A stretch of DNA of 44,545 bases from Escherichia phage 6948, in sequence record OL362272.1, one strand, 5' to 3'. The notes beneath the pieces were generated by a model. That model did no database searches and was not told the DNA's origin. It saw only the letters and a program-made list of their open reading frames with translations. Positions 1 to 31,573 of this stretch are shown one piece after another. The position numbers were made by a program, and so were the translations under genes. Each line of letters begins with the position of its first letter. Positions within the stretch are counted from its first letter, which is position 1.

Positions 1-300
1 TTGAGCGTACACAATAAACATGCAGCTACAGAGGATGAGGTTGGCATTCTGCATGGTGCTATTACCAAAATCTTCAATAAGAAAGCACAGGCAATACTGG
101 ACACTATAGAAGAAGACCCTGATGCAGCATTACATTTAGTGTCTGGTAAGGATATTGGTGCGATGTGTAAGTGGGTTCTTGATAACGGCATTACCGCCAC
201 ACCTGCTGCACAGCAGGAAGAGTCCAAGTTATCTAAGCGCCTCAAGGCTATCCGAGAGGCATCCAGTGGTAAGATAATTCAATTCACTAAGGAGGATTGA
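1..300 (+). CDS. terminase small subunit, 3' portion (5' end lies outside the window)
   Basis: Open frame runs from window start to TGA at 298-300, overlapping the large-terminase ATG (ATGA). Assignment is by position immediately upstream of the large subunit as in T7 gene 18/19; no diagnostic motif recognised. Confidence 0.45.
   Translation: MSVHNKHAATEDEVGILHGAITKIFNKKAQAILDTIEEDPDAALHLVSGKDIGAMCKWVLDNGITATPAAQQEESKLSKRLKAIREASSGKIIQFTKED
92..114 (+). promoter_or_regulatory. phage-RNAP promoter (inside the small-terminase gene)
   Basis: CAATACTGGACACTATAGAAGAA; matches the window consensus ATTTACYGGACACTATAGAAG except at -17 to -14. Confidence 0.5.
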
Positions 301-2198
301 TGGCTAAGGCAAGAGAATCACAAGCGGAGGCTCTTGCCAGATGGGAGATGCTACAGGAGTTACAGCAGACCTTTCCTTACACAGCGGAAGGTTTGCTTCT
401 CTTTGCAGATACAGTTATTCATAACTTAATTGCAGGCAACCCTCATCTGATTCGTATGCAGGCTGATATCTTGAAGTTCCTATTTTACGGACACAAGTAC
501 CGCCTCATCGAAGCGCCTCGTGGTATCGCTAAGACAACACTATCAGCAATCTATACGGTATTCCGTATTATTCATGAACCGCATAAGCGTATCATGGTTG
601 TGTCCCAAAACGCCAAGCGAGCAGAGGAAATCGCAGGTTGGGTAGTTAAAATCTTCCGTGGCTTAGACTTTCTTGAGTTTATGCTGCCGGATATCTACGC
701 TGGGGATCGTGCATCCGTTAAGGCGTTTGAGATTCATTACACCCTACGTGGTAGTGATAAGTCTCCTTCTGTATCTTGTTACTCAATCGAAGCAGGTATG
801 CAGGGTGCTCGTGCTGATATTATTCTAGCGGATGACGTAGAGTCGATGCAGAACGCTCGTACGGCAGCGGGCCGTGCCTTGCTTGAGGAACTGACTAAGG
901 AGTTTGAATCTATCAACCAGTTTGGGGATATCATTTACCTTGGTACACCTCAGAACGTAAACTCTATCTACAACAACCTACCTGCTCGTGGTTACTCTGT
1001 TCGTATCTGGACTGCGCGTTACCCTTCAGTAGAGCAAGAGCAATGTTATGGCGACTTCCTTGCACCTATGATTGTTCAAGATATGAAGGACAACCCAGCA
1101 CTTCGCTCAGGGTACGGGTTGGATGGTAATAGTGGTGCACCTTGTGCCCCTGAAATGTATGATGATGAAGTTCTGATTGAGAAGGAAATCTCTCAGGGTG
1201 CTGCTAAGTTCCAGCTTCAGTTCATGCTTAACACTCGCATGATGGATGCTGACAGATACCCATTACGCCTGAACAATCTAATCTTCACCTCGTTTGGTAC
1301 AGAGGAAGTCCCTGTGATGCCTACGTGGAGTAATGATTCCATAAACATCATTGGTGATGCACCTAAGTATGGTAACAAGCCTACGGATTTCATGTACAGA
1401 CCTGTAGCTCGCCCATATGAATGGGGTGCTGTCTCCCGCAAGATTATGTATATTGACCCTGCGGGTGGCGGTAAGAATGGGGATGAGACGGGTGTGGCCA
1501 TCGTATTCCTGCACGGCACATTCATTTATGTGTATCAGTGCTTTGGTGTACCTGGCGGATACCGAGAATCGTCCCTGAATCGCATTGTGCAGGCCGCAAA
1601 GCAGGCGGGTGTTAAAGAGGTATTCATTGAGAAGAACTTTGGTCATGGCGCGTTTGAGGCGGTAATTAAGCCGTACTTTGAACGAGAGTGGCCTGTAACT
1701 CTGGAAGAAGATTACGCCACCGGACAGAAAGAATTGCGTATCATTGAGACGCTGGAGCCGCTCATGGCAGCCCATAGGCTTATCTTCAATGCAGAGATGG
1801 TGAAGTCAGACTTTGAGTCGGTACAGCACTATCCGCTTGAACTACGCATGTCCTACAGTCTTTTCAATCAAATGTCGAACATAACGATTGAGAAGAACAG
1901 CCTCCGGCACGATGACCGCCTAGACGCCCTGTATGGCGCTATCCGGCAATTAACTTCTCAGATAGACTATGACGAGGTTACACGGATTAATCGCCTCAGA
2001 GCGCAGGAGATGCGAGATTACATCCATGCTATGAACACACCTCATCTACGCAGGGCAATGCTATATGGGGATTACGGTACTGAGCGAAGAGTGACCAACA
2101 CTTCCGTAGCGATGCAGCAGCGAGTTTACGGGCAGAACTACCGAAATAAATCGGCAAGCAGAAATACACTTTCTGCAAGGATTTCAAGGACTTATTAA
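300..2198 (+). CDS. terminase large subunit (DNA maturase B)
   Basis: 632 aa; Walker A-like segment EAPRGIAKTT near the N-terminus, acidic nuclease-type segments (ILADDVES, MYIDPAGGG), size and position typical of T7 gp19-like terminases; RBS GGAGG before ATG 300. Confidence 0.9.
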   Translation: MAKARESQAEALARWEMLQELQQTFPYTAEGLLLFADTVIHNLIAGNPHLIRMQADILKFLFYGHKYRLIEAPRGIAKTTLSAIYTVFRIIHEPHKRIMVVSQNAKRAEEIAGWVVKIFRGLDFLEFMLPDIYAGDRASVKAFEIHYTLRGSDKSPSVSCYSIEAGMQGARADIILADDVESMQNARTAAGRALLEELTKEFESINQFGDIIYLGTPQNVNSIYNNLPARGYSVRIWTARYPSVEQEQCYGDFLAPMIVQDMKDNPALRSGYGLDGNSGAPCAPEMYDDEVLIEKEISQGAAKFQLQFMLNTRMMDADRYPLRLNNLIFTSFGTEEVPVMPTWSNDSINIIGDAPKYGNKPTDFMYRPVARPYEWGAVSRKIMYIDPAGGGKNGDETGVAIVFLHGTFIYVYQCFGVPGGYRESSLNRIVQAAKQAGVKEVFIEKNFGHGAFEAVIKPYFEREWPVTLEEDYATGQKELRIIETLEPLMAAHRLIFNAEMVKSDFESVQHYPLELRMSYSLFNQMSNITIEKNSLRHDDRLDALYGAIRQLTSQIDYDEVTRINRLRAQEMRDYIHAMNTPHLRRAMLYGDYGTERRVTNTSVAMQQRVYGQNYRNKSASRNTLSARISRTY

Positions 2199-2219
2199 TT
2201 ACTGGACACTATAGAAGGA
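2197..2219 (+). promoter_or_regulatory. phage-RNAP promoter after the terminase gene
   Basis: AATTACTGGACACTATAGAAGGA. Confidence 0.7.
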
Positions 2220-2362
2220 AGGCCCAGATAATAAGAGAAATAATAGGTAATATATAGGTTAACCTAGGTTATATAGGTATGCCTTAGTGTGGGTGTACTC
2301 CTGTACACCCTATTCATTACTACCTTACTACCTTACTATATTTACATAATAGGAGAGAGACA

Positions 2363-3871: not shown

Positions 3872-3894
3872 ATTTACTGGACACTATAGAAGAG
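3872..3894 (+). promoter_or_regulatory. phage-RNAP promoter upstream of tailspike 1
   Basis: ATTTACTGGACACTATAGAAGAG. Confidence 0.75.
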
Positions 3895-3973
3895 GTAAGA
3901 TAGCGCCGTTCTTTTGAGCGGCCTATTACTAGCCAATCTTCATAGGGAGGGTTGGAAAGTAATAGGAGATAGC

Positions 3974-5872
3974 ATGGCTAAATTAACCAAACCTAATACT
4001 GAAGGAATCTTGCATAAAGGACAATCTTTGTATGAGTACCTTGATGCGAGAGTTTTAACATCAAAGCCGTTTGGTGCTGCAGGTGACGCCACTACTGATG
4101 ATACGGAGGTTATAGCTGCTTCATTAAACTCTCAGAAAGCTGTCACAGTCTCAGACGGTGTATTCTCTAGCTCTGGTATTAATAGTAATTACTGTAACTT
4201 AGACGGCAGGGGTAGTGGCGTGCTAAGTCACCGTTCAAGTACAGGTAACTACTTAGTATTTAACAATCTACGTGCAGGTCGCTTAAGTAATATTACGGTA
4301 GAAAGTAATAAGGCGACTGATACAACTCAGGGACAGCAGGTATCCCTTGCTGGTGGAAGTGATGTTACTGTAAGTGACGTTAACTTCTCAAACGTTAAAG
4401 GTACTGGTTTCAGTTTAATCGCATACCCTAATGATGCGCCACCGGATGGACTTATGATTAAAGGCATTCGAGGTAGCTATTCCGGCTATGCTACTAATAA
4501 GGCAGCCGGATGCGTACTTGCTGACTCCTCAGTTAACTCCCTCATAGATAACGTCATTGCTAAGAACTACCCTCAGTTCGGAGCAGTAGAGTTGAAAGGT
4601 ACAGCCAGTTACAACATAGTCAGTAATGTTATAGGGGCAGATTGCCAGCATGTAACTTACAACGGCACTGAAGGGCCAATAGCTCCTTCTAATAACCTTA
4701 TCAATGGGGTGATGGCTAATAACCCTAAGTATGCAGCGGTTGTTGCAGGCAAAGGGAGTACTAACTTAATCTCAGACGTGCTCGTAGATTACTCAACTTC
4801 TGATGCTAGGCAGGCTCATGGTGTTACCGTAGAGGGATCTGATAACGTCATAAATAATGTGCTTATGTCAGGATGTGATGGTACTAACTCTTTAGGACAA
4901 GGGCAGACTGCTACAATTGCACGCTTTATAGGTACAGCTAATAACAACTATGCGTCTGTATTTCCTAGCTACAGTGCTACAGGTGTTATTACTTTCGAAT
5001 CCGGCTCTACCCGTAACTTCGTAGAGGTAAAGCACCCTGGCAGGAGAAACGACATTCTCAGTTCTGCTAGTACTATTGACGGTGCAGCTACTATTGACGG
5101 CACTAATAATAGTAACGTAGTGCACGCACCTGCCTTAGGGCAGTACATAGGTAGTATGTCAGGTAGGTTCGAATGGCGGATTAAGTCCATGTCACTCCCT
5201 TCAGGTGTTCTTACTTCTGCTGATAAGTACAGAATGCTTGGAGATGGTGCTGTGTCATTAGCTGTAGGTGGGGGCACTTCTTCTCAAGTTCGCCTATTTA
5301 CTTCTGATGGTACTTCTCGGACAGTGTCCATCACCAACGGTAACGTGCGTCTTTCTACCAGTAGCACAGGCTATTTGCAGTTAGGTGCTGATGCAATGAC
5401 CCCAGATAGTACTGGTACATACGCATTAGGTTCCGCCAGTCGAGCATGGTCTGGCGGTTTTACTCAAGCAGCATTCACTGTTACCTCAGATGCTCGGTGT
5501 AAAACAGAACCTCTTACTATCTCAGATGCATTACTAGATGCTTGGTCTGAAGTTGACTTTGTGCAGTTTCAGTATTTGGATCGTGTTGAGGAGAAGGGTG
5601 CAGACTCAGCTAGATGGCACTTCGGTATCATCGCTCAGCGAGCTAAGGATGCCTTCGAACGTCACGGTATAGATGCACATCGCTATGGCTTCTTGTGCTT
5701 CGACAGTTGGGATGATGTATACGAGGAAGATGCCAATGGCTCTCGTAAACTGATTACACCAGCAGGTTCCCGCTACGGTATTCGTTACGAGGAAGCACTG
5801 ATATTAGAGGCTGCGTTGATGCGGCGGACTATTAAGCGTATGCAGGAAGCACTAGCTTCCCTGCCTAAGTAA
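3974..5872 (+). CDS. tailspike 1: beta-helix capsule depolymerase with C-terminal intramolecular chaperone (peptidase S74-like) domain
   Basis: 632 aa from ATG 3974 (RBS AGGAG); Ser/Thr/Gly/Asn-rich beta-helix-like repeats; C-terminus TVTS-DARCK...LDAWSEVDFVQFQYLDR...WHFGIIAQ matches the autoproteolytic chaperone module of endosialidase/K5-lyase-type tailspikes. Confidence 0.85.
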   Translation: MAKLTKPNTEGILHKGQSLYEYLDARVLTSKPFGAAGDATTDDTEVIAASLNSQKAVTVSDGVFSSSGINSNYCNLDGRGSGVLSHRSSTGNYLVFNNLRAGRLSNITVESNKATDTTQGQQVSLAGGSDVTVSDVNFSNVKGTGFSLIAYPNDAPPDGLMIKGIRGSYSGYATNKAAGCVLADSSVNSLIDNVIAKNYPQFGAVELKGTASYNIVSNVIGADCQHVTYNGTEGPIAPSNNLINGVMANNPKYAAVVAGKGSTNLISDVLVDYSTSDARQAHGVTVEGSDNVINNVLMSGCDGTNSLGQGQTATIARFIGTANNNYASVFPSYSATGVITFESGSTRNFVEVKHPGRRNDILSSASTIDGAATIDGTNNSNVVHAPALGQYIGSMSGRFEWRIKSMSLPSGVLTSADKYRMLGDGAVSLAVGGGTSSQVRLFTSDGTSRTVSITNGNVRLSTSSTGYLQLGADAMTPDSTGTYALGSASRAWSGGFTQAAFTVTSDARCKTEPLTISDALLDAWSEVDFVQFQYLDRVEEKGADSARWHFGIIAQRAKDAFERHGIDAHRYGFLCFDSWDDVYEEDANGSRKLITPAGSRYGIRYEEALILEAALMRRTIKRMQEALASLPK

Positions 5873-5958: not shown

Positions 5959-7671
5959 ATGCTTCAAAGATTAAGTGCTTACTTGGTGAAGTACAAGAGT
6001 AAACTAACAGGTACTATTGAGCGCCTGCTATCTGATAAACTATCGGATACAATAGATGTTGCGGATTTTGGAGTTACTCCATCTTCCAATGACAACAGGC
6101 AAGCACTTCAAGCTGCGTTCAATGCAGTCAGAGTGTTAGGCGGTGGCACTGTATTAGTCACTAAAGCTGGAAAATACAAACTCAGTGGTACTGTTGAGAT
6201 ATTTGCTAATACACACTTCAAGGTGGCTAAAGGTGTAACATTTGTACGTGACTACGAAACAGGAGATACGCTATTCAGATTATCACAAGGGCAAGCTAGT
6301 AATGTAACAGTCAGTGGAGGTATCTATGAAGGCAATGGTCACACTAAGGGAGATACACCTTTTGTAGTATTTGCATCTACTAGTAATAATGATTTGAAGT
6401 TTGAAGGCATAACAGTTAACAATGTAGTGGACTACCACGCCATAGATTTAGCAGATTGGAACAACGTAGTTATTCGTGATTGTAAATTCCTAGGTTTTAA
6501 GAATACAGGCAGTCGTAACTTCTCAGAGGCTATACAGTTAGACCCAGGTCTTATTACAGTTGGTCACTATGTACAGTCAAGTGGTATGCTGGTGGAGAAT
6601 TGCTATGCTGGTCCAAACACAGAATCAGGGTTTGGAGGTTATGGTGCACTAATTGGAAATCACGCCTCAGCTTACGGTGTACAGGACAACAATATCCGTA
6701 TCTTGAATTGCACTACAGATGGTGCTCTCTTTGCAGGTGTACGTGTATTTAACTGGAAAAACTGGACAGTGCGTGGTTGCACATTTAGGAACTCTAATGC
6801 AAGAGGTGTCCATGTTACACCTGTCTCATCTCAGACTAAACCGCAGGGTACTCGACAAGGTAGTATTGTAGATTGCACTTTTGATGGCGTAAGGACACCA
6901 GTGCTAATTGCTGCACCATCTTGGCCTTTTACCGATATTAGTGACATTTGGCATGACCATATTGAAATTTCTAATAATACTATGATCCTCACAGAGGATG
7001 TATCCTATGGTGTAGATGCAAGGTGGTGTAAGAATTTAATTGTAAAAGGTAATACAGGCTCTGGTGGCTTAGGGTTAATCGGTTTACGCTTTGGGACAAA
7101 ATACCACATCGAAGGTAATACTTGGGAAAACGGAAGAGGTAGTGGGATTTGGTTAGGTGAGTCTGATGCTACTACATTCATTGGTACTGGTTTATCAGGA
7201 GAAGGTATACTTAGTCGTAATATCTTCTCTAAATTAGGGCAATATGGTATTCATGTAAACTGCAAGGCTAGCTGTCTAGTGATTAAAGCCAATAATATGA
7301 AGGAAGTATCTACAGCTGAAGCAGGTAGGCACTTCATTAGTATAGACACAGGGGCTAACAACATCCTAGTAGAAGGTAATATTGGAGTAGACGGAGAAAG
7401 CCCTAACAAGCCAAGCCTTGGTATTCGTGTTACTTCTTCTTGTTCCAATATTAAACTCATTGGCAATGATTGCTATGGCACACAGGCGCCTCAGAATAAC
7501 CAAGGAGTTGGTTCTAGTACGGTGATTGTTTATGGGCTAAATGGCAACCCTACAACTTTAGGCGTAGGTGCACCTGTAGGCTCTTTAGCAACTGATATCA
7601 ATGGTTCTGGTGGTAGTACATTGTACGTTAAAGAATCTGGTACATCTGCTCAAGGTTGGGTTGCAAAGTAG
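5959..7671 (+). CDS. tailspike 2: pectate-lyase-like right-handed beta-helix depolymerase
   Basis: 570 aa, RBS AAAGGAGG; N-terminal DVADFGVTPSSNDNRQALQAAF...GGGTVLV resembles the start of pectate-lyase-3/GH28-like phage depolymerases; repetitive NxxVxG/GN turns. Confidence 0.75.
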   Translation: MLQRLSAYLVKYKSKLTGTIERLLSDKLSDTIDVADFGVTPSSNDNRQALQAAFNAVRVLGGGTVLVTKAGKYKLSGTVEIFANTHFKVAKGVTFVRDYETGDTLFRLSQGQASNVTVSGGIYEGNGHTKGDTPFVVFASTSNNDLKFEGITVNNVVDYHAIDLADWNNVVIRDCKFLGFKNTGSRNFSEAIQLDPGLITVGHYVQSSGMLVENCYAGPNTESGFGGYGALIGNHASAYGVQDNNIRILNCTTDGALFAGVRVFNWKNWTVRGCTFRNSNARGVHVTPVSSQTKPQGTRQGSIVDCTFDGVRTPVLIAAPSWPFTDISDIWHDHIEISNNTMILTEDVSYGVDARWCKNLIVKGNTGSGGLGLIGLRFGTKYHIEGNTWENGRGSGIWLGESDATTFIGTGLSGEGILSRNIFSKLGQYGIHVNCKASCLVIKANNMKEVSTAEAGRHFISIDTGANNILVEGNIGVDGESPNKPSLGIRVTSSCSNIKLIGNDCYGTQAPQNNQGVGSSTVIVYGLNGNPTTLGVGAPVGSLATDINGSGGSTLYVKESGTSAQGWVAK

Positions 7672-8031: not shown

Positions 8032-8680
8032 CCAAAGTCAAAATTTTGATGTAGGCGTGTGTCAGCTCTCTCGCCCTCGCCCTCGCCGGGTTGCCCCCAT
8101 AGGGTGGCCTGAGGGAATCCGTCTTCGACGGGCAGGGCTGATGTACTCCTTGGATAGTACAAGGGGGGGCGGAGGGAACGCCTAGGGAGGCCCAGGAATG
8201 GCTTAGTGGTGGACAAGGTGATTACCTTAGTGAAGCCTCTTAGTGCAGTCCTGAGGCCATTCAGGGCCATTCCTGAGCGTTTGACAGGGTGGGAGGGTGT
8301 GGGCTATCTGTTCGTTTCGTTCACTCCGCTTGCGCTACGTTCACTCGCTCACGTGTACCTTAGGTTATTCCTTGATGGATAGCTTAGGTTAGCCTTAGTG
8401 GACTACCTTAGTTAAAGCCTTAGTGCTTCACTTAGTATCAGCTTAGTAGTGTGCCTTAGTAAGTCTTAGTGTCTTCTCTTAGTGATTGCACATGCAAGCA
8501 TGTAAGATGCCATTAGGTCGCGGTCGGTAGACCGCTAAAGAAGAAGTATAGTAATAAGATGCAGTAGGAGGAACACCAGAAACCTAGCCAACCTAGCCTA
8601 TCCTAGCTCTGTATCTATTGCTTTTCCTTAGTCTAACATGTGAGACAACCTAGATTTATCTTAGTGATGATATCTTAGTG

Positions 8681-8709
8681 TTGACAAGGCCATCTCAATA
8701 TAATACTAT
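8681..8709 (+). promoter_or_regulatory. candidate host sigma70 early promoter
   Basis: TTGACA (8681-8686), 17-nt spacer, TACTAT (8704-8709); upstream of the first early ORFs. Confidence 0.3.
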
Positions 8710-10003: not shown

Positions 10004-10117
10004 ATGGAAAAGCTATACAACTTCATCTTTTCAGACGGTGTAACCCTGAAGTGTTCCCTGCGTTTCGCACAAATTCGTGAGGAAGTACTAGGCACTACAT
10101 ACAAACTATTTAGCTGA
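10004..10117 (+). CDS. small early hypothetical protein
   Basis: 37 aa; ATG 3 nt after the Ocr stop. Confidence 0.25.
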   Translation: MEKLYNFIFSDGVTLKCSLRFAQIREEVLGTTYKLFS

Positions 10118-10130
10118 CACTATAAGAGAA
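10106..10130 (+). promoter_or_regulatory. variant phage-RNAP promoter-like site in the early region
   Basis: TATTTAGCTGACACTATAAGAGAAG; closest in this window to the SP6 form ATTTAGGTGACACTATAG but the initiating G is displaced. Confidence 0.4.
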
Positions 10131-11471: not shown

Positions 11472-14099
11472 ATGCAAGACCTACACGCTATTCAACTTCA
11501 ACTTGAAGAAGAAATGTTTAACGGCGGTATCCGTCGCTTTGAAGCGGACCAACAACGCCAGATTGCATCCGGTAATGAATCAGACACGGCATGGAATCGC
11601 CGCTTATTGTCCGAGTTAATCGCGCCAATGGCTGAAGGTATTCAGGCATACAAGGAAGAGTATGAAGGTAAAAGAGGCCGTGCACCGCGTGCATTAGCTT
11701 TCATTAACTGCGTAGAAAACGAAGTGGCAGCATATATCACGATGAAAATCGTTATGGATATGCTGAACACGGATGTAACCTTGCAGGCTATAGCCATGAA
11801 TGTAGCTGACCGCATTGAGGACCAAGTACGTTTTAGCAAGCTGGAAGGTCACGCCGCCAAATACTTTGAGAAAGTTAAGAAGTCACTTAAGGCAAGTAAG
11901 ACTAAATCATATCGCCATGCGCACAACGTAGCGGTCGTGGCTGAGAAGTCAGTAGCTGACCGTGACGCTGATTTCTCTCGCTGGGAGGCATGGCCTAAAG
12001 ACACCTTGCTGCAAATTGGGATGACCTTGCTTGAAATCTTAGAGAATAGCGTATTCTTCAACGGGCAACCTGTCTTCCTCCGCACCTTGCGCACTAATGG
12101 TGGCAAGCATGGTGTTTACTACTTACAGACCAGTGAGCACGTAGGGGAGTGGATTACAGCATTTAAAGAACATGTAGCGCAACTTAGTCCAGCCTATGCT
12201 CCTTGCGTCATCCCTCCGCGTCCGTGGGTATCACCTTTTAACGGCGGTTTCCACACTGAGAAAGTAGCAAGCCGTATTCGTCTGGTAAAAGGAAACCGCG
12301 AACACGTCCGCAAGCTGACCAAAAAGCAAATGCCAGCGGTTTACAAGGCTGTTAACGCTTTGCAGGCGACTAAGTGGCAGGTTAATAAAGAGGTTTTACA
12401 GGTTGTGGAGGACGTTATACGTCTAGACCTCGGCTATGGTGTACCTTCCTTTAAACCACTCATCGACCGTGAGAACAAGCCAGCTAATCCGGTGCCGTTA
12501 GAGTTCCAGCACCTGCGAGGCCGTGAACTGAAAGAAATGCTTACGCCGGAACAATGGCAAGCCTTTATCAACTGGAAAGGTGAATGTACTAAGCTGTACA
12601 CCGCTGAAACTAAGCGCGGAAGCAAATCGGCGGCAACCGTTCGCATGGTTGGTCAGGCCCGTAAATATAGCCAGTTCGACGCAATCTACTTCGTGTATGC
12701 ACTGGACAGCCGCAGCCGTGTATACGCGCAATCTAGCACGCTCTCGCCGCAATCAAACGACTTAGGCAAGGCATTGCTCCGTTTTACCGAAGGGCAGCGT
12801 CTTGATAGCGCTGAGGCGCTTAAGTGGTTTTTGGTGAACGGGGCGAATAACTGGGGTTGGGATAAGAAAACTTTTGACGTGCGCACCTCTAACGTGCTGG
12901 ATGGCGAATTTCAAGACATGTGCCGCGACATTGCAGCCGATCCGCTGACCTTCACTCAATGGGTAAATGCTGATTCCCCTTACGGCTTCCTTGCATGGTG
13001 CTTTGAATATGCGCGTTATCTGGATGCACTGGATGAAGGCACGCAAGACCAATTCATGACGCATCTACCCGTCCATCAAGACGGTAGTTGCTCTGGTATC
13101 CAGCACTATAGCGCGATGTTACGCGATGAAGTAGGTGCGAAAGCAGTAAACCTTAAGCCTTCTGACTTCCCTCAAGATATTTATGGCGCGGTTGCGCAGG
13201 TTGTTATCCAGAAGAATTACGCCTACATGAATGCAGACGATGCAGAGATTTTCACATCTGGAAGCGTCACACTTACAGGTGCAGAACTGCGTAGCATGGC
13301 TAGTGCGTGGGATATGATAGGAATCACTCGCGGATTGACCAAAAAGCCCGTAATGACACTACCTTATGGCAGCACACGTCTAACCTGCCGTGAATCAGTG
13401 ATTGATTATATCGTTGATTTGGAAGAAAAAGAGGCCCAACGAGCTATTGCGGAAGGGCGTACCGCCAATCCTGTACATCCTTTTGATAATGACCGTAAGG
13501 ACAGCCTGACACCTAGTGCAGCTTATAACTATATGACGGCTTTAATCTGGCCTTCTATTTCGGAAGTGGTTAAAGCTCCTATAGTGGCAATGAAAATGAT
13601 TCGTCAGCTTGCCCGTTTCGCAGCTAAAAGGAATGAAGGCTTAGAGTATACCTTGCCTACTGGCTTCATCTTGCAACAAAAGATTATGGCTACCGACATG
13701 CTACGCGTATCCACTTGCTTGATGGGTGAAATCAAGATGAGTCTACAGATTGAGACTGATGTAGTGGATGAAACGGCTATGATGGGCGCTGCTGCTCCTA
13801 ACTTTGTTCACGGGCATGATGCTAGTCATCTCATCCTGACTGTATGTGACCTCGTTGACAAGGGCATTACATCCATCGCAGTCATCCATGATTCTTTCGG
13901 TACTCACGCAGGCCGTACAGCCGATCTACGTGATAGTCTAAGGGCAGAAATGGTGAAGATGTATCAAGGCCGTAATGCCCTGCAAAGCCTGTTAGATGAG
14001 CATGAAGAACGCTGGTTAGTAGACACCGGAATCCAAGTGCCAGAGCAAGGAGAGTTTGACCTTAACGAAATCTTAGTATCTGACTATTGCTTCGCATAA
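11472..14099 (+). CDS. single-subunit DNA-directed RNA polymerase (SP6-type)
   Basis: 875 aa; motifs [31 protein letters not shown] and C-terminal ...YCFA typical of T7/SP6 RNAP; N-terminus [16 protein letters not shown] resembles SP6 RNAP as recalled. Confidence 0.95.
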
Positions 14100-14107
14100 T
14101 ATTAATA

Positions 14108-14138
14108 GGCCATTCCTTCGGGAGTGGCCTTTTCTTTT
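14108..14138 (+). terminator. intrinsic terminator after the RNAP gene (early terminator analogue)
   Basis: Stem GGCCATTCC / GGAGTGGCC with TTCG tetraloop followed by TTTTCTTTT. Confidence 0.6.
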
Positions 14139-14172: not shown

Positions 14173-14188
14173 GTCTCACATGTGAGAC
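14173..14188. repeat. conserved palindrome GTCTCACATGTGAGAC (copy 1)
   Basis: Perfect 16-bp palindrome, 3 nt upstream of promoter 14191. Confidence 0.8.
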
Positions 14189-14190: not shown

Positions 14191-14213
14191 ATTTACCGGA
14201 CACTATAGGATAG
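14191..14213 (+). promoter_or_regulatory. phage-RNAP promoter downstream of the RNAP gene (first of a tandem pair)
   Basis: ATTTACCGGACACTATAGGATAG. Confidence 0.7.
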
Positions 14214-14353
14214 CCGTCGGAGACGGGAAAGAAAGGGAAGATAAAGGATATAAAGGAAGTAATAGGTATTAAAGGTTATATAGGTTATCTAGGAATACCT
14301 ATTACCTTCTTCCTTCCTCTTATTACCACTTAGAGGAAGGGCAGATCTAGGTT

Positions 14354-14369
14354 GTCTCACATGTGAGAC
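14354..14369. repeat. conserved palindrome GTCTCACATGTGAGAC (copy 2)
   Basis: Identical 16-mer, 5 nt upstream of promoter 14375. Confidence 0.8.
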
Positions 14370-14374
14370 TTCGT

Positions 14375-14397
14375 ATTTACCGGACAGTATAGATAAG
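14375..14397 (+). promoter_or_regulatory. variant phage-RNAP promoter (second of the tandem pair)
   Basis: ATTTACCGGACAGTATAGATAAG; C-to-G change at -5. Confidence 0.45.
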
Positions 14398-14773: not shown

Positions 14774-16761
14774 TGGCTATTATTAATAACATCCCGTGCC
14801 CTGCCTGCCAGAAGAATGGGCACGATAAATCAGGCAATCATCTCATGATATTTGATGATGGTGCTGGCTATTGTAACCGTGGTCACTTCCATGATAATGG
14901 GAAGCCCTATTACCATAAGCCAGAGGGTGGTATCGAGATAACCGAATTGCCTATTACTGGCAATATCAAATATACACCTTCTCAATTCAAAGAAATGGAG
15001 AAGGAAGGGAAGATAAGCGACCCTAAGCTACGCGCCATCGCTCTTGGTGGTATGCGTATGAAAGACCGTTGGGAGGTCATGAATGAGCAAGAAAGGGCAG
15101 ACCAAGAAGCAGAGTGGAAACTTGATGTTGAATGGTTCCTCACGCTTAAGCGTAAGAACCTTGTTTCCCGACACATTCGCGGCGACATTTGCGCATTGTA
15201 TGATGTACGTGTCGGACACGATGAAGAGGGTAGAGTCTCGCGGCATTACTATCCACGCTTCGAGAAAGGTGAGCTAGTAGGAGCTAAGTGTCGTACCTTA
15301 CCTAAAGATTTCAAGTTTGGACACTTAGGTAAACTCTTTGGTATGCAAGATCTTTTCGGTATGAATACTTTGTCTCACGTGTTAGACAAGGGGAGACGAA
15401 AGGATTGCTTGCTTATTGTAGGCGGTGAACTTGATGCACTAGCAGCGCAGCAGATGCTCCTTGATTCTGCCAAAGGTACTAAGTGGGAAGGTCAGCCATA
15501 CCATGTATGGTCTGTCAATAAAGGTGAGTCTTGCCTTGAAGAGATAGTGCAAAACCGTGAGCACATAGCCCAATTCAAGAAGATTATATGGGGCTTTGAT
15601 GGCGACGAGGTGGGGCAGAAGCAGAACCAACAAGCTGCTCGCCTGTTTCCTGGCAAATCCTACATCCTCGAATATCCATCTGGTTGCAAAGATGCTAACA
15701 AGGCATTGATGGCTGGCAAGGCTAAAGAGTTTGTAGATGCATGGTTTAATGCCAAGTCATCTGATGAAGTCTTTGGTAGCCAGATTAAATCTATCGCATC
15801 TCAAAGGGATAAGCTCAAGGCTGCACGTCCAGAGCAAGGACTATCATGGCCTTGGCCTAAGCTGAACAAGGTAACGCTAGGTATTCGTAAGAACCAACTT
15901 ATCATTGTAGGCGCAGGCTCTGGTGTAGGTAAGACTGAGTTCCTTCGTGAAGTAGTTAAGCACCTCATTGAAGAACACGGTGAATCTGTAGGCATCATTT
16001 CTACAGAAGACCCGATGGTCAAGGTGTCCCGTGCTTTTATCGGCAAGTGGATTGATAAGCGTATTGAGTTACCGCCAACCAACGACCCGAAAGAAGATGG
16101 ATACCGTGAGGTGTTCGACTACACCGAAGAAGAGGCTAACGCCGCCATTGATTATGTAGCTGATACAGGTAAGCTGTTTGTAGCTGACCTAGAGGGTGAC
16201 TATTCGATGGAAAAGGTAGAGCAAACTTGCCTAGAGTTTGAGGCTATGGGCATTTCTAATATCATCATTGATAACTTAACGGGGATTAAATTAGATGAGC
16301 GTGCTTTTGGTGGGAAGGTTGGTGCACTTGATGAATGCGTCAAGCGGATTGGTACTATCAAAGACCGACACCCGGTTACTATATTCCTTGTATCACACCT
16401 TACACGTCCTCCGGCAAACCGTACCCAACACGAAGAAGGTGGCGAGGTTATCCTTTCTGACTTCCGAGGTTCAGGCGCTATCGGATTCTGGGCATCTTAC
16501 GCCTTGGGGATTGAGCGTAATACAAGAGCTGAAACGCTTGACGAAAGGACTACCACGTACATCTCATGTGTCAAAGACCGCGACCAAGGTATCTGGACTG
16601 GAACCAAGGTCATGCTTAAGGGTGACATTCAAACCGGACGTTTAATGGAACCACAAGCCCGTACTAAGTCATTTGACACCGGCGAAGCAAGGCAACAAGA
16701 AGTACCGGATTTACCGGACACTATAGAAGAGACTAACTTCGATGAAGAAAGTGAGTTCTGA
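14773..16761 (+). CDS. bifunctional DNA primase/helicase (gp4-like)
   Basis: 662 aa; N-terminal zinc ribbon CPACQ...CNRGH, central TOPRIM-like region, Walker A GAGSGVGKT, Walker B IIIDNL; acidic C-terminus ending ...DEESEF. Confidence 0.9.
   Translation: MAIINNIPCPACQKNGHDKSGNHLMIFDDGAGYCNRGHFHDNGKPYYHKPEGGIEITELPITGNIKYTPSQFKEMEKEGKISDPKLRAIALGGMRMKDRWEVMNEQERADQEAEWKLDVEWFLTLKRKNLVSRHIRGDICALYDVRVGHDEEGRVSRHYYPRFEKGELVGAKCRTLPKDFKFGHLGKLFGMQDLFGMNTLSHVLDKGRRKDCLLIVGGELDALAAQQMLLDSAKGTKWEGQPYHVWSVNKGESCLEEIVQNREHIAQFKKIIWGFDGDEVGQKQNQQAARLFPGKSYILEYPSGCKDANKALMAGKAKEFVDAWFNAKSSDEVFGSQIKSIASQRDKLKAARPEQGLSWPWPKLNKVTLGIRKNQLIIVGAGSGVGKTEFLREVVKHLIEEHGESVGIISTEDPMVKVSRAFIGKWIDKRIELPPTNDPKEDGYREVFDYTEEEANAAIDYVADTGKLFVADLEGDYSMEKVEQTCLEFEAMGISNIIIDNLTGIKLDERAFGGKVGALDECVKRIGTIKDRHPVTIFLVSHLTRPPANRTQHEEGGEVILSDFRGSGAIGFWASYALGIERNTRAETLDERTTTYISCVKDRDQGIWTGTKVMLKGDIQTGRLMEPQARTKSFDTGEARQQEVPDLPDTIEETNFDEESEF
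16709..16731 (+). promoter_or_regulatory. phage-RNAP promoter inside the 3' end of the primase/helicase gene
   Basis: ATTTACCGGACACTATAGAAGAG. Confidence 0.7.
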
Positions 16762-16781: not shown

Positions 16782-16799
16782 TGTCTCACACGTGAGACA
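16782..16799. repeat. conserved palindrome family, TGTCTCACACGTGAGACA (copy 3)
   Basis: 7-bp arms TGTCTCA/TGAGACA with CACG centre; flanks extend the stem (GGGCTTG...CAGGCTC); after primase/helicase. Confidence 0.75.
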
Positions 16800-16837: not shown

Positions 16838-17521
16838 ATGTATAAATTAGTATTGAATGTAGGTGATTATGTTCGTAACATCAATGTAACCTCACGTAGA
16901 TATCGTTGCCGTGGTACTGTGACTAATGTAAGTGAAAACAGCTACTATGTAGAATACAGTAATGGTATTAGACAGGCTTATCAAAAGGAATCAGCACATA
17001 ACTACCTTGAGAAGATTGGAGAGGTAAGCAATCAATGTAAGTGCGTACACGATGAGATTTGCGATAAGTGTGCCCGCCAGCTGCATAAAATGCTATTATA
17101 CCCTCTTCGCTATGGTGCTGGTGTTCAAACATTAGCAGAGGCATATGGCAAAAGTAAGACCACACTCAAGAAAGAGCGCCGCAATGTAATCACTGGTAAG
17201 ACTCAAAGTGAAATGATTAAACTATGTGGCACTGCATTAGGTGTTACGCAGTTTAATACTCGTTCATTGGGTAAATCCACAGGGCAAGCTATGGTAAAGA
17301 TTGGCGAAGCCATGATGCATCCAAATGTACCTGTACGAATCATGGATGTTGACCATGCAATCACAGAACACGGTACGCAACGACGTGTAATTAATAAGCA
17401 TTTTGCCGACACTATAGAAGGTATTATTCGTAAGCAAGAGTTGAAGGGTCTTCACATCTTAAATGGTGAAGAATTACTGTACCTACCTATCGTTACTGAA
17501 GAAACCTACGTGAATATCTAA
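16838..17521 (+). CDS. hypothetical protein
   Basis: 227 aa from ATG 16838 (GGAG 9 nt upstream); Cys cluster CKCVHDEICDKC. Confidence 0.5.
   Translation: MYKLVLNVGDYVRNINVTSRRYRCRGTVTNVSENSYYVEYSNGIRQAYQKESAHNYLEKIGEVSNQCKCVHDEICDKCARQLHKMLLYPLRYGAGVQTLAEAYGKSKTTLKKERRNVITGKTQSEMIKLCGTALGVTQFNTRSLGKSTGQAMVKIGEAMMHPNVPVRIMDVDHAITEHGTQRRVINKHFADTIEGIIRKQELKGLHILNGEELLYLPIVTEETYVNI
17400..17422 (+). promoter_or_regulatory. variant phage-RNAP promoter
   Basis: ATTTTGCCGACACTATAGAAGGT; upstream half diverges. Confidence 0.4.
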
Positions 17522-17925: not shown

Positions 17926-17943
17926 TGTCTCACGTGTGAGACA
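17926..17943. repeat. conserved palindrome family, TGTCTCACGTGTGAGACA (copy 4)
   Basis: Extended stem GGTTGTCTCA/TGAGACAGCC followed by TTTT, so also terminator-like. Confidence 0.75.
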
Positions 17944-21033: not shown

Positions 21034-21092
21034 GTTATACTCAAGGTCACTTACGAGTGGCCTTTATGAATAACTTAACTGGAGGAAATATA

Positions 21093-21650
21093 ATGAATGA
21101 ACTGAACACTAAGATGCTCAAGAAAGTTTATAATCTTGTATATAGTATCACGGGCCTACAATTCTACCCTGTAGGCGGTGCGGTTCGTGACACCCTGTAC
21201 GGATTAACACCTAAAGACTATGATATGGTGTTGCCTGTAGGGTCTATGGCAGATTCTCAGGCGCACGAAATCATGGAAAATATCTCTGAAGAGATGGCAA
21301 TTATGGGATTTAGTACCAAACTCTACCAATCATACGGTATCAATTTAGGTTATGAAATCAACCCTACCTCTTTTCAGGCTATGTTCCTTAGCTGCATGAA
21401 AGTGCAGATGCGTAATTGCCAACTTGATTTGCTTCTTTCTAAGGCTGAAACCATCCAAGATCATGTACGTAAGCACGATTGCAATATGAATATGGTGTGG
21501 TTCGATGGTAAAGATATCAAGTGGGAGCACGGCGGTGTTACTCCTTTCGTTCCTGTGTTAGAGTTCAACCCTGACGGATGTGATCGTCGCATTGCTTACA
21601 TGGACAAGAAGCGCCATGAACTTATCCGTCACAAATTAATGCATCTTTGA
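21093..21650 (+). CDS. polymerase-beta-superfamily nucleotidyltransferase, CCA-adding-enzyme/poly(A)-polymerase head-domain-like
   Basis: 185 aa from ATG 21093 (GGAGG 8 nt upstream); YPVGGAVRDTLYGLTPKDYDMVLPVG matches the GGxVRD...DxD signature of class II tRNA nucleotidyltransferases. Confidence 0.6.
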   Translation: MNELNTKMLKKVYNLVYSITGLQFYPVGGAVRDTLYGLTPKDYDMVLPVGSMADSQAHEIMENISEEMAIMGFSTKLYQSYGINLGYEINPTSFQAMFLSCMKVQMRNCQLDLLLSKAETIQDHVRKHDCNMNMVWFDGKDIKWEHGGVTPFVPVLEFNPDGCDRRIAYMDKKRHELIRHKLMHL

Positions 21651-21672
21651 TTTACCGGACACTATAGAAGGA
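21650..21672 (+). promoter_or_regulatory. phage-RNAP promoter
   Basis: ATTTACCGGACACTATAGAAGGA. Confidence 0.75.
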
Positions 21673-21736: not shown

Positions 21737-22114
21737 ATGTCTATGGTAACTACTCTGGTATTTGTAGCTCAATACTTTCGTGGTCTGGCTAATAAGTTCA
21801 AGTCCAAGGCTATCAAAGCTATTGAGTCTCGCATCGAGGCAGTACAGGCAGAGCAAGTTAAAGTTGAAGAACATCGTAGTTCTCAAATGATTGACTGCCA
21901 TAACCGCTACTATGCATCTCGTGATGACCTTAATGCACGCCAAGTCAAAGAGGTTGAAGAGATGCTGGCACGTCACCAGCAAGAGCGCGACAGCCTGAAA
22001 GCTGAATTTGAAGAGAACAAGGCATCCATCGCCCTTGTACATCAAGCCGCATCTGACAACCTGAAGAAAGAGATTGTTATGCTGGAAATTGAGTTAGACA
22101 ACCTGACCAAATAA
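21737..22114 (+). CDS. hypothetical coiled-coil protein
   Basis: 125 aa, RBS TAGGAG; heptad-like charged sequence. Confidence 0.5.
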   Translation: MSMVTTLVFVAQYFRGLANKFKSKAIKAIESRIEAVQAEQVKVEEHRSSQMIDCHNRYYASRDDLNARQVKEVEEMLARHQQERDSLKAEFEENKASIALVHQAASDNLKKEIVMLEIELDNLTK

Positions 22115-22135
22115 TTACTGGACACTATAGAACAA
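22113..22135 (+). promoter_or_regulatory. phage-RNAP promoter upstream of the SSB-like gene
   Basis: AATTACTGGACACTATAGAACAA. Confidence 0.7.
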
Positions 22136-23227: not shown

Positions 23228-23243
23228 GTCTCACGTGTGAGAC
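23228..23243. repeat. conserved palindrome GTCTCACGTGTGAGAC (copy 5)
   Basis: Perfect 16-mer immediately after the 23226 stop and upstream of promoter 23259. Confidence 0.8.
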
Positions 23244-23258: not shown

Positions 23259-23281
23259 ATTTACTGGACACTATAGAAGAG
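23259..23281 (+). promoter_or_regulatory. phage-RNAP promoter upstream of the 123-aa acidic protein
   Basis: ATTTACTGGACACTATAGAAGAG. Confidence 0.75.
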
Positions 23282-25394: not shown

Positions 25395-26394
25395 GCTTCG
25401 CAGCTTGTACAAAGACTCCGAGGTACTTGATGCAATCGAGCAAGCTACCGACGAGAAAGGTAATGTTAATTACAATGAGATGGCACGTGTATTATCGTGT
25501 CACCCTGTGGGTAAGAAGATTACCCGCCAGTTGGCTCGATACTGGCATGGTCAATTCAAGAAGACCAAGAAGAATGGTGATTATTACCAGACCCTTCTGC
25601 AAGAAGATAAGCGTATCAAAGAAGAGCGTAAGCTCAGGACTCCTGACCGCTACGAGGATTTGGCTATTGTTCCATTGCCTGACTCGCCTCATCGAAGTGT
25701 ACTGGTGATACCTGATACTCATGCACCTTATGAGCACCCAGATACCCTAGAGTTCCTTGCAGCCGTGGCAGCACGTTACCGTCCAGACACAGTGGTACAC
25801 CTAGGAGATGAGGCAGACAAACATGCCTTGTCATTCCACGATTCGGACCCAAATCTGGATAGTGCTGGCATGGAGTTAGAGAAGGCTCGTATCTTCATGC
25901 ACAAATTGCACAAGATGTTCCCTGTGATGCGCCTGTGTCACTCCAACCACGGCTCTATGCACTTCCGTAAGGCAAGCGCCAAGGGCATCCCTGTGCAATA
26001 CCTGCGCACCTACCGTGAAGTTTTCTTCCCGCAGGGAGGTGGCGACCAGTGGGATTGGCAACATACGCACGTCCTTGAGTTGCCGAATGGTGAACAAGTG
26101 GCATTCAAGCATCAACCTGCTGGCTCTGTCCTAGCAGATGCAGCGCATGAGCGTATGAACCTTGTGTGTGGTCACTTGCACGGTAAGATGTCTGTGGAGT
26201 ACGCACGTAATACACATGAACAGTATTGGGCTGTGCAAGGTGGCTGCTTAATTGATGAGTCATCCCGTGCATTTGCCTATGGTCGTGAGTCTAAATACAA
26301 GCCAGCATTAGGTTGTGTGGTCATTCTGGAGGGTGTGCCTCACATTGTCCCGATGCAAACCAATAGCGACAACCGTTGGATTGGCAAGATTTAG
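25387..26394 (+). CDS. calcineurin-like metallophosphoesterase
   Basis: 335 aa from TTG 25387 with AGGAGG 7 nt upstream; motifs VIPDTHAPYEH (DxH), HLGDEAD (GDxxD), CHSNHG (GNH). Confidence 0.7.
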   Translation: MGKLRSLYKDSEVLDAIEQATDEKGNVNYNEMARVLSCHPVGKKITRQLARYWHGQFKKTKKNGDYYQTLLQEDKRIKEERKLRTPDRYEDLAIVPLPDSPHRSVLVIPDTHAPYEHPDTLEFLAAVAARYRPDTVVHLGDEADKHALSFHDSDPNLDSAGMELEKARIFMHKLHKMFPVMRLCHSNHGSMHFRKASAKGIPVQYLRTYREVFFPQGGGDQWDWQHTHVLELPNGEQVAFKHQPAGSVLADAAHERMNLVCGHLHGKMSVEYARNTHEQYWAVQGGCLIDESSRAFAYGRESKYKPALGCVVILEGVPHIVPMQTNSDNRWIGKI

Positions 26395-26411
26395 TTGACA
26401 CTATAGAACAA
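26389..26411 (+). promoter_or_regulatory. phage-RNAP promoter (most SP6-like copy)
   Basis: ATTTAGTTGACACTATAGAACAA. Confidence 0.65.
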
Positions 26412-28862: not shown

Positions 28863-29072
28863 ATGGGTGTTGTAAAGAAAGCATTTAAGGCTATCGGTCT
28901 TGCTCAAGATGCACCACGTATTGAAGCCAAAGTACCAGCACAGCAGCTTGAGCGTAAACCTGAGACTGAAGCTGAAGATATTCAAATTGGTGCAGGTGGT
29001 GATGATGCGACTGCATCTGCAAAAGGTAAGCGCGGCCTTGTCCGTCCGGTGGCTTCTAGCTTGAAGGTGTGA
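28863..29072 (+). CDS. small virion-associated protein (gp6.7-like), tentative
   Basis: 69 aa, RBS AAGGAG, low-complexity basic/Ala-rich; immediately upstream of portal. Confidence 0.4.
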   Translation: MGVVKKAFKAIGLAQDAPRIEAKVPAQQLERKPETEAEDIQIGAGGDDATASAKGKRGLVRPVASSLKV

Positions 29073-29073
29073 T

Positions 29074-30624
29074 ATGAAACAGAGCACAGATTTGGAGTAT
29101 GGAGGTAAGAGATCTAAGATACCTAAGCTATGGGAGAAGTTCTCCACTAAACGTAGCTCTTTCCTTGATAGGGCGAAGCATTACTCCAAATTAACCTTGC
29201 CCTATCTGATGAATGACAAAGGTGATAACGAGACTTCGCAGAATGGATGGCAAGGTGTAGGTGCTCAGGCAACTAATCATCTAGCCAACAAGCTAGCGCA
29301 AGTACTATTCCCTGCACAGCGTTCCTTCTTCCGTGTAGACTTAACTGCACAAGGTGAGAAGGTTCTTAATCAGCGTGGCCTGAAGAAGACAGAGCTAGCT
29401 ACCATCTTCGCTCAAGTGGAAACACGGGCAATGAAAGAGTTAGAGCAACGTCAATTCCGGCCTGCTGTAGTAGAAGCATTTAAGCATCTTATTGTTGCTG
29501 GCAGCTGTATGCTATACAAGCCGAGCAAAGGTGCAATCAGTGCTATCCCAATGCATCACTACGTAGTTAACCGTGATACCAATGGCGACCTGTTAGACAT
29601 TATCTTGCTACAAGAGAAAGCCTTACGTACCTTTGACCCAGCTACACGTGCTGTAGTAGAGGTTGGCCTGAAAGGTAAGAAGTGCAAAGAAGATGACAGC
29701 GTTAAGCTGTACACACATGCTAAGTATCTTGGTGATGGATTTTGGGAACTCAAGCAATCTGCTGATGATATCCCTGTGGGTAAGGTGAGTAAAATCAAAT
29801 CAGAAAAGCTACCTTTCATCCCATTAACTTGGAAGCGAAGCTATGGTGAGGATTGGGGTCGCCCTCTTGCAGAGGATTACTCCGGTGATTTATTCGTTAT
29901 CCAATTCTTATCTGAAGCGGTTGCCCGTGGTGCTGCGCTGATGGCAGATATCAAGTACCTGATTCGTCCGGGTGCTCAAACTGATGTTGACCACTTTGTT
30001 AACTCTGGCACTGGTGAGGTTATCACTGGTGTAGAAGAAGACATCCATATTGTACAGTTAGGTAAGTATGCAGACCTCACACCTATTAGCGCGGTTCTAG
30101 AGGTATACACTCGCCGTATCGGTGTTGTCTTCATGATGGAGACAATGACACGCCGTGACGCCGAACGTGTTACTGCTGTAGAAATCCAGCGAGATGCGTT
30201 AGAGATTGAGCAGAACATGGGTGGTGTATACTCCCTCTTTGCTACTACTATGCAATCGCCAGTAGCGATGTGGGGTCTGCTGGAGGCAGGGGAGTCCTTC
30301 ACTAGTGACCTAGTGGACCCTGTGATTATTACAGGTATTGAAGCTTTAGGACGCATGGCTGAGTTGGATAAACTGGCTAACTTTGCTCAGTATATGTCAC
30401 TGCCATTACAATGGCCTGAGCCTGTCCTAGCTGCTGTGAAATGGCCTGACTATATGGATTGGGTGCGTGGTCAAATCTCTGCTGAACTGCCGTTCCTTAA
30501 ATCAGCTGAAGAGATGGCACAAGAACAGGAAGCACAGATGCAAGCACAGCAAGCACAGATGCTTGAAGAAGGTGTGGCTAAGGCCGTGCCGGGTGTAATT
30601 CAACAAGAACTTAAGGAGGCGTAA
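29074..30624 (+). CDS. portal (head-tail connector) protein
   Basis: 516 aa; position and size; segment WQGVGAQATNHLANKLAQVLFP resembles the T7 gp8 N-terminal region. Confidence 0.85.
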   Translation: MKQSTDLEYGGKRSKIPKLWEKFSTKRSSFLDRAKHYSKLTLPYLMNDKGDNETSQNGWQGVGAQATNHLANKLAQVLFPAQRSFFRVDLTAQGEKVLNQRGLKKTELATIFAQVETRAMKELEQRQFRPAVVEAFKHLIVAGSCMLYKPSKGAISAIPMHHYVVNRDTNGDLLDIILLQEKALRTFDPATRAVVEVGLKGKKCKEDDSVKLYTHAKYLGDGFWELKQSADDIPVGKVSKIKSEKLPFIPLTWKRSYGEDWGRPLAEDYSGDLFVIQFLSEAVARGAALMADIKYLIRPGAQTDVDHFVNSGTGEVITGVEEDIHIVQLGKYADLTPISAVLEVYTRRIGVVFMMETMTRRDAERVTAVEIQRDALEIEQNMGGVYSLFATTMQSPVAMWGLLEAGESFTSDLVDPVIITGIEALGRMAELDKLANFAQYMSLPLQWPEPVLAAVKWPDYMDWVRGQISAELPFLKSAEEMAQEQEAQMQAQQAQMLEEGVAKAVPGVIQQELKEA

Positions 30625-31544
30625 TGTCTTTCTCATTTACTGAACCGTCAACCACTCACCCTACTACTGAAGAGGTTCCGGTAGAAACCAAGGAGGTAAC
30701 AACTGATGCTGCTACTACTGATGCTACTGCTGACGCTGGCACTGCTGTACAAGATGACAATGCTGGTGCACAACCTACTGAAGACACCGGAGGAGAAGCT
30801 TCTGGACAGCCTTCAGAAAAAGGAGACAATGGCGGAGAGAATGGTGAATCTAAGCCAGATGATACCGCGACCGACACTGAGGAAGTGCAATACTTCTTCG
30901 GAGAACATGAAGTAACAATAGACATCCCACAGGATGTAACTGACAGCCTTAAAGAGAAAGGCATTGATGCCAAGCAGGTTGCCAAGGAACTATATTCCAA
31001 AGGTGGCAAGTTTGAACTGTCAGATGCAACCAAGCAGAAATTGTATGATGCTTTTGGCAAGTTTGCGGTAGATGCTTACCTGTCAGGTCTTAAGGCTCAA
31101 AATGAAGCCTTCTTCCTGAAAGAAGCCAACGCAGCTAAAGAGTTGGAAGCAGTTAACACCCAACGATTCTCTGATGTTTCTAAGGAAATTGGTGGCGAAG
31201 AAGGTTGGTCCCGTCTTGAGGAGTGGGCGCTTGAAACGCTATCCGATGACGAACTCACGGCATTCAATGCTGTGATGGAGTCTGGCAACCAGTACCTCCA
31301 GCAGTACGCTGTGCGTGAACTGGAGAGCCGCCGTAAGGCTGCACAGGGTGATGATAGGCCATCCCTGATTGAGCCATCAGCACCTGCTAAGGCTAATGAA
31401 GAGAATGGCCCACTGACGCGAGATCAGTACGTTCAAGCAATCGCAACTCTTAGCCAGAAGTACGGCAATGACCGTAAAGCTATGGCAGAAGCTCAAGCTA
31501 AACTGGACGCCCGTCGCCGTGCTGGCATGGCTCGCGGTATCTAA
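30624..31544 (+). CDS. capsid assembly scaffolding protein
   Basis: 306 aa, acidic low-complexity N-terminus, helical C-terminus; between portal and capsid. Confidence 0.7.
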   Translation: MSFSFTEPSTTHPTTEEVPVETKEVTTDAATTDATADAGTAVQDDNAGAQPTEDTGGEASGQPSEKGDNGGENGESKPDDTATDTEEVQYFFGEHEVTIDIPQDVTDSLKEKGIDAKQVAKELYSKGGKFELSDATKQKLYDAFGKFAVDAYLSGLKAQNEAFFLKEANAAKELEAVNTQRFSDVSKEIGGEEGWSRLEEWALETLSDDELTAFNAVMESGNQYLQQYAVRELESRRKAAQGDDRPSLIEPSAPAKANEENGPLTRDQYVQAIATLSQKYGNDRKAMAEAQAKLDARRRAGMARGI

Positions 31545-31550
31545 TTCAGT

Positions 31551-31573
31551 ATTTACTGGACACTATAGAAGGG
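31551..31573 (+). promoter_or_regulatory. phage-RNAP promoter upstream of the major capsid gene
   Basis: ATTTACTGGACACTATAGAAGGG, followed by strong RBS. Confidence 0.8.

Follow-up and report, generated by a model that had tools for sequence, protein, structure and literature searches.

The structure 1CEZ provides the basis for the reading of promoter positions -11 and -10 by residue 748 of the T7 RNA polymerase (RNAP), and Raskin et al. are said to have found in 1992 that a single-residue change separates T7 from T3. A 2025 genome-mining study likewise has T7 position 748 reading these two bases, with N748 in T7 versus D749 in T3 setting the two enzymes apart, and assigns K1E and SP6 to different RNAP-promoter specificity clusters, set by T7 positions 748, 756, and 758 (PMC11880802). 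The C3P3-G1 expression system is built around the K1E RNAP, 85% identical to that of SP6, and the promoter of the K1E capsid gene; there, the pair drives expression in a heterologous setting (PMC6412113). Further, work on a vaccine platform set the K1E and K1-5 polymerases against that of SP6 (PMC12400119), and an RNAP with the optimised promoter TATTTACTGGACACTATAGGAGGA was characterised in 2026 (PMC13029058); nothing specific on K1E-type promoters appears in PMC4837284 or PMC4640515. The GenBank records of K1E, K1-5, and SP6 carry coding sequences only, with no annotated promoter features. Here, we describe a set of promoter-like sites and the single-subunit RNAP encoded with them in Escherichia phage 6948 (record OL362272.1; "the window" is the whole 44,545-nucleotide stretch analysed), and compare them with these systems. 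Promoter class, enzyme, and tool use are all published, and the pair in the window is of the known K1E/K1-5 type.

With a probability of roughly 0.93, the 13 sites collected in the table serve as middle and late promoters in a Vectrevirus and are used by the phage's own T7-type RNAP. Support for this reading comes from the 12 matches to ATTTACYGGACACTATAGAAG (at most three mismatches), all on the + strand and co-oriented with the genes, against a chance expectation of 0.00 and zero matches in 100 dinucleotide-preserving shuffles. The twelve-member repeat set proposed by the first-pass annotation is hence real, its coordinates are right, and it had correctly noted that the copy at 26389 reads AGTTG and that those at 14375 (with ACAGTATAG) and 10106 are degenerate. 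The last of these, placed here at 10108-10128 (ATTTAGCTGACACTATAAGAG), is a thirteenth + strand site with four mismatches to ATTTACYGGACACTATAGAAG and A at +1; it was recovered with the 10-base core GACACTATAG, one mismatch allowed, and brings the set to 13 members if counted. Two of the 13 co-oriented sites lie within genes; the other eleven are in intergenic DNA or overlap a stop codon.

Taking the G of TATAG as +1 (the SP6 convention), the core GACACTATAG spans -9 to +1 rather than the -7 to +1 originally assigned, and the block in which the set departs from SP6 (ACYGG versus AGGTG) spans -13 to -9 rather than -12 to -8, such that the earlier labels were off by one to two bases and the differing bases are -12, -11, and -10. 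Positions -9 to -6 and -4 to -1 are identical in all 13 sites, -5 is C in 12 of them, and the ATTTA block at -17 to -13 is present in nine. The set thus shows the core CACTATAG at -7 to +1 together with an AT-rich -17 to -13, and C-Y-G-G at -12 to -9, which is the K1E/K1-5 (Vectrevirus) promoter class. At -12, C occurs in 10 sites and G in three; at -11, T occurs in seven, C in six, and a purine in none; and -10 is G in 10 of 13. Counted over -12 to -9, CTGG is the commonest block (six sites), although CCGG (four) and other blocks (three) are frequent enough that calling the set "mostly ACTGG" overstated the case. The SP6 (Zindervirus) class is defined by GGTG or GGGG at -12 to -9 and by Arg at the equivalent of T7 N748; none of the 13 window sites has G at -11, and the RNAP of the window has Ser, not Arg.

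Table. Predicted promoters and associated features of the Escherichia phage 6948 window, with prophage-borne copies at the end; start sites are predicted from sequence, and gene contexts follow from K1E proteins mapped onto the window.
Feature	Position	Strand	Predicted +1	Location and remarks	Syntenic counterparts
Single-subunit RNAP gene, 875 amino acids	11472-14099	+		Pfam RNA_pol 4.3e-89, RPOL_N 1.5e-31	
Specificity-loop homologue, residues 738-769	13683-13778	+		by alignment with T7 RNAP	
Promoter CAATACTGGACACTATAGAAGAA	92-114	+	109	within small-terminase gene, 191 nucleotides before large-terminase start	K1E 37182, K1-5 35488
Promoter AATTACTGG...	2197-2219	+	2214	overlaps terL stop codon, upstream of gene 41	K1E 40033, K1-5 37593
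Consensus promoter	3872-3894	+	3889	upstream of first tailspike gene (3914-5872)	K1E 41717, K1-5 39265, SP6 39910
Degenerate promoter-like site ATTTAGCTGACACTATAAGAG	10108-10130	+	10125 (A)	upstream of genes 5, 6, and the RNAP gene	
Promoter ATTTACCGGACACTATAGGATAG	14191-14213	+	14208	first of two sites after RNAP gene	
Degenerate promoter ATTTACCGGACAGTATAGATAAG	14375-14397	+	14392	upstream of gene 8	
Consensus promoter	16709-16731	+	16726	end of primase/helicase gene, upstream of gene 10	
Variant promoter ATTTTGCCGACACTATAGAAGGT	17400-17422	+	17417	within gene 10, upstream of gene 10.5	
Consensus promoter	21650-21672	+	21667	upstream of gene 15	
Promoter AATTACTGG...AAC	22113-22135	+	22130	overlaps gene 15 stop codon, upstream of gene 16	
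Consensus promoter	23259-23281	+	23276	upstream of gene 18	
Variant promoter ATTTAGTTGACACTATAGAAC	26389-26411	+	26406	upstream of gene 23	
Consensus promoter	31551-31573	+	31568	upstream of major capsid gene (31624-32832)	
Hairpin and T-run, likely early terminator	14107-14130	+		directly after RNAP gene; 10-bp stem, 6 GC pairs, TTTCTTTT tail	
Terminator-like hairpin and T-run	32840-32866	+		after major capsid gene; 11-bp stem, TCTTTTTGTT tail	
16-bp palindrome, eight copies	8631-8646, 14173-14188, 14354-14369, 15372-15387, 16783-16798, 17927-17942, 23228-23243, 39714-39729				
Prophage copy	L072 3925-4157			IMG/VR prophage contig	
Prophage copy	L198 ~6026-6258			E. coli M217, NZ_AP019189	
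Prophage copy	L199 ~520-760			Shigella phage SfIV (SP6-type version)	

As a podophage genome, the window is complete and circularly permuted; its first base lies inside the small-terminase gene, and all its genes are on the + strand. It is 96-98% identical over nearly its full length to Vectrevirus genomes including 6949, EEc2, EC120, K1E, and vB_EcoP_B. Scanned in the same way, the K1E and K1-5 genomes have a counterpart to every window site at the same gene junction, identical in sequence or one base off, and this site-for-site match covers both degenerate copies as well as the one with AGTTG. The three genomes agree in how many sites they have, in what order, and at which gene junctions, and the RNAP of the window is 98-99% identical to those of the other two; what differs is at the strain level (e.g., the tailspike genes and one extra nucleotidyltransferase gene here), with small exchanges at -11 such as at the gene 15 site, where the window has C and K1E has T, and at the gene 41 site, where it is the other way round. 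The capsid-gene site at 31551 equals the K1E capsid-gene site over the 23 bases compared, and the CAGTATAGATA variant of the 14375 site occurs at the equivalent position in K1E, K1-5, and a Proteus phage. The idea of a distinct or new promoter set consequently falls, since the set matches K1E/K1-5 site for site and its separate cluster is already published (PMC11880802).

SP6 has about 12-13 sites at homologous gene junctions and shares with the window both ATTTA (-17 to -13) and GACACTATAGAAG (-9 to +4), but has G, G, K at -12, -11, and -10, where the window has C, Y, G. Other Molineuxvirinae (Erwinia phages phiEa100 and Era103, and Proteus and Klebsiella relatives) resemble the window in having ~7-12 co-oriented motifs of 20-23 bp ending in TATAGAAG and, in each, a degenerate one ahead of the RNAP gene region, but differ in a lineage-specific -12 to -5 block.

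The enzyme itself matches T7 RNAP structures over its full length at ~1e-111 and is 99%, 98%, and 86% identical to the RNAPs of K1-5, K1E, and SP6, respectively. In a HMMER alignment to T7 RNAP there are no gaps between the conserved GF motif and the end of the specificity hairpin, so that R745, S747, K755, and S757 of the window correspond to T7 R746, N748, R756, and Q758 (the S747 codon is 13710-13712). The loop (residues 738-769) equals that of K1-5, and K1E differs by one residue just beyond it. Compared with SP6 there are six differences, five of them conservative, and the sixth is S747, which is Arg746 in SP6. The loop comparison with SP6 and T7 that had been proposed as a check hence places the one non-conservative change at the homologue of T7 N748. 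By analogy, bases -12, -11, and -10 would be read by the specificity hairpin, with Ser747 in the window enzyme and Arg in SP6 as the reader at the T7 Asn748 position, and such a difference in the reader of -12 to -10 would shift specificity away from SP6, mainly at -11. This resembles the T7/T3 switch in that the positions involved, in both loop and promoter, appear to be the same, and departs from it in the residues (Asn/Asp there versus Ser/Arg here) as well as in the bases.

Covariation of promoter and loop was followed across 16 loci, namely those of K1E, K1-5, and SP6 and RNAP loci drawn from IMG/VR together with their 10-kb flanks. In the 12 Ser-type loci (loop LRVS), which are alike in their CYGG pattern, -11 is a pyrimidine (C or T) at 90 of 92 promoters, and in the four Arg-type loci (loop LRVR; SP6-like, 85-86% identity) it is G at 36 of 37. 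Position -9 is G in all, while -12 and -10 overlap between the two groups. Thus, -11 is a near-perfect discriminator between K1E- and SP6-type promoters, and Ser747 versus Arg is the matching protein difference. An independent repeat of the pairing comes from the Erwinia phage phiEa100, which like the window has Ser at the 748-equivalent and combines it with C-12 C-11. The proposal of an altered RNAP specificity is therefore borne out in that the promoters differ from SP6 and the Ser747/Arg difference covaries with -11, while the contact between Ser747 and -11 is a predicted one.

Two points weigh against this assignment. First, covariation among close relatives partly reflects shared ancestry, and the phage collection holds no RNAPs 90%-95% identical to that of the window. 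Second, the residues of K1E- and SP6-type enzymes, once transplanted into T7 RNAP, do not follow the rules derived from T7 (PMC11880802), and for this reason we infer the link from Ser/Arg to -11 from homology together with covariation. Among more distant Molineuxvirinae, each of five lineages (L013, L014, L067, L068, and L069) has its own residues at the equivalents of T7 748, 756, and 758, and de novo repeat finding gave as their consensus promoters ATTTGTGTTGCACTATAG, ATTTAGGGGCTACTATAG, AATTAAAGACCACTATAG, TAATAGTGGCGAGTATAG, and AATAACCACCCAGTATAG, respectively.

How far the two specificities are separated is another matter, and the first-pass annotation had gone on to suggest an orthogonal RNAP-promoter pair. 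The K1E and K1-5 RNAPs are indeed used as expression tools, that of K1E expressly with its cognate promoter (PMC6412113, PMC12400119), but a clean orthogonality, in which neither the window RNAP nor SP6 RNAP works on the other's promoter, appears unlikely to us. It would be in line with the nearly full split of the groups at -11 and the Ser/Arg difference at the T7 N748 equivalent, and with the split of T7 and T3 by an analogous single-residue change. Against it stands the metagenome-derived RNAP No. 2049, of K1E type by its cognate promoter TATTTACTGGACACTATAG, which is active on the SP6 promoter in vitro with a normalised signal of 3.5%, versus ~2% on its own consensus (PMC13029058). Near-SP6 or exact SP6-type sites also persist in Ser-type genomes: the window, like its relatives K1E and K1-5, retains at 26389 a site one base off the SP6 consensus (SP6 has ATTTAAGTG there), and the locus L009, whose RNAP is Ser-type, K1E-like, and 97% identical, has an exact SP6-type promoter (ATTTAGGTGACACTATAGAAG, 2709-2729) before its tailspike gene. 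Conversely, SP6 itself has C at -12 in two of its promoters and G at -10 in several. Because No. 2049 works on the SP6 promoter, the 26389 site is near-SP6, and L009 carries an exact SP6-type site, cross-use is likely, and we infer its degree between K1E-type and SP6-type pairs. Strict orthogonality to SP6 is accordingly doubtful in at least one direction, and the specificity of the window pair is probably shifted from that of SP6, centred on -11, and overlapping rather than cleanly orthogonal. The intergenic flanks of the L009 promoter are conserved between SP6 and K1-5; co-transfer with an SP6 tailspike was considered as a source of the site and rejected, as the protein downstream has no similarity to SP6 gp46.

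The same cross-activity, seen in one direction, could also be taken to mean that specificity did not change functionally at all and that the -12 to -10 differences are neutral drift equally tolerated by both enzymes, and the several bases accepted at -12 and -10 in both genomes would agree with this. We regard it as improbable given that -11 is nearly fixed in each lineage over ~13 independent sites per genome and many genomes, and such near-invariance across sites and genomes argues for selection by the resident enzyme. Further, the sole non-conservative loop change falls on a known specificity position, and the distant phiEa100 repeats the combination of Ser and CC.

In T7, the primary replication origin lies at the two promoters after gene 1. 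The sites at 14191 and 14375 are placed in the same way, and the stretch between them (14208-14375) is AT-rich, with purine- and pyrimidine-skewed runs (GGAAAGAAAGGGAAGATAAAGGATATAAAGGAAG ... CCTTCTTCCTTCCTCTT); because of this position and the AT-rich stretch, the two sites may double as an origin. That the repeats are chiefly non-promoter elements, i.e., replication origins, packaging signals, or RNA-processing sites, could draw on this pair but is very improbable for the set, whose -9 to +4 is identical to the experimentally defined SP6 promoter, whose members stand at gene starts genome-wide and all co-oriented, and whose K1E equivalent of identical sequence acts as a promoter in a heterologous system (PMC6412113).

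Read as promoters of the resident RNAP, the sites fit the transcription plan usual in the T7 group. Two sigma-70-like promoters, at 8681 and 9265, are consistent with an early region transcribed by the host polymerase, which presumably reads ~8.6-14.1 kb from these two promoters to the hairpin past the RNAP gene. At each site, the phage RNAP would then start on the G of TATAG and proceed rightward across the replication, structural, packaging, and tailspike genes.

The degenerate 10108 site has equivalents with A at +1 in K1E (2779), K1-5 (2014), SP6 (2104), L013 (8729), L014 (2126), and L068 (11205). These lie ~1.1-1.4 kb upstream of the RNAP gene and read TATAAGAG in most genomes, including K1E and K1-5, with GAT after TATAA in the SP6 record and L068. 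A in place of G at +1 persists across lineages with wholly different specificity blocks, and such wide conservation suggests a promoter that is weak by design or initiates differently and that might feed back on the expression of the RNAP gene.

The palindrome GTCTCAC(A/G)(T/C)GTGAGAC (16 bp) forms a second repeat family, with eight copies in the window (at most two mismatches; 0.03 expected), seven of them intergenic. Three copies precede the promoters at 14191, 14375, and 23259, by 2, 5, and 15 bases, respectively. The palindrome is retained in K1E and K1-5, and the SP6 form, GTCTAAC..GTTGGAC, would have one G-U pair if RNA. Because the arms covary and SP6 allows this G-U pair, the palindrome would seem to act as a hairpin rather than as a protein-binding site. 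Literature searches found no mention of its sequence.

Outside the promoter set, the window differs from K1E in several genes. It has two tailspike genes, at 3914-5872 (652 amino acids, with a C-terminal Peptidase_S74 chaperone domain) and 5959-7671 (a 570-amino-acid beta-helix protein), neither of which is the K1E endosialidase (32% identity only, over the C-terminal chaperone part); phages EEc2, Sem1-4, and 6949 match this region at 98-99% identity. An extra gene for a 197-amino-acid nucleotidyltransferase-like protein (21057-21650; PHROG 1614), which K1E lacks, lies just before the gene 15 promoter, and the large-terminase gene (297-2198) is unbroken, whereas in K1E it is 40A and 40B with a homing-endonuclease gene in between.

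Beyond Vectrevirus genomes, the exact promoter 21-mer ATTTACTGGACACTATAGAAG was looked for in IMG/VR, which gave the expected Vectrevirus contigs and ~65 prophage-like contigs sharing one common locus; the exact SP6 21-mer was found in SP6-like contigs only; species-representative genomes gave no match to the exact 21-mer. At this locus, which belongs to lambdoid prophages, one strand carries terL, terS, and HNH, and the opposite strand carries a palindrome of the window family, 14 bases, and an exact K1E-type consensus, followed by a leader of ~50 nucleotides, a strong ribosome-binding site (AAGGAGGT), a 40-codon open reading frame (ORF), and iss/bor, after which come the lysis genes on the first strand. 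The promoter is antisense to the prophage late operon and upstream of iss/bor. A 78-bp query of palindrome plus promoter matched 535 of 5426 complete E. coli genomes (~10%), 403 of them at at least 99% identity, and none of the 535 has an annotated feature at the promoter. The homologous locus of SfIV reads ATTTAGGTGACACTTTAGAAG, with an SP6-type specificity block, and phage lambda lacks the element. A flank-anchored scan recovered several promoter variants, and the changes in the palindrome arms are compensatory. The 40-codon ORF is unbroken in each of the ~95 loci, and over its C-terminal half it overlaps the 3' end of Rz, or an Rz relic, on the opposite strand, which may explain its conservation. 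Pfam gave zero matches for the 40-amino-acid peptide, public records describe it only as "hypothetical", and the element's sequences were not found in literature searches.

Together, these results place the promoter-RNAP pair of phage 6948 within a recognised set, and as the pair is published, present in public genomes, and already used for expression, the set adds little that is new; clean orthogonality to SP6 should not be assumed for it. The prophage-borne copy lies outside the promoter finding itself and is the sole item that could lead to something new. It is possible that the element is a recombination relic. We also put forward, as a speculation that we hold to have only a small chance of being right, that it is a cassette switched on by the RNAP of an invading SP6/K1E-like phage, with a trap, exclusion, or hitch-hiking function. 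If so, the promoter copies borne by the hosts would press on the divergence between K1E-type and SP6-type specificity and might thereby help drive it.

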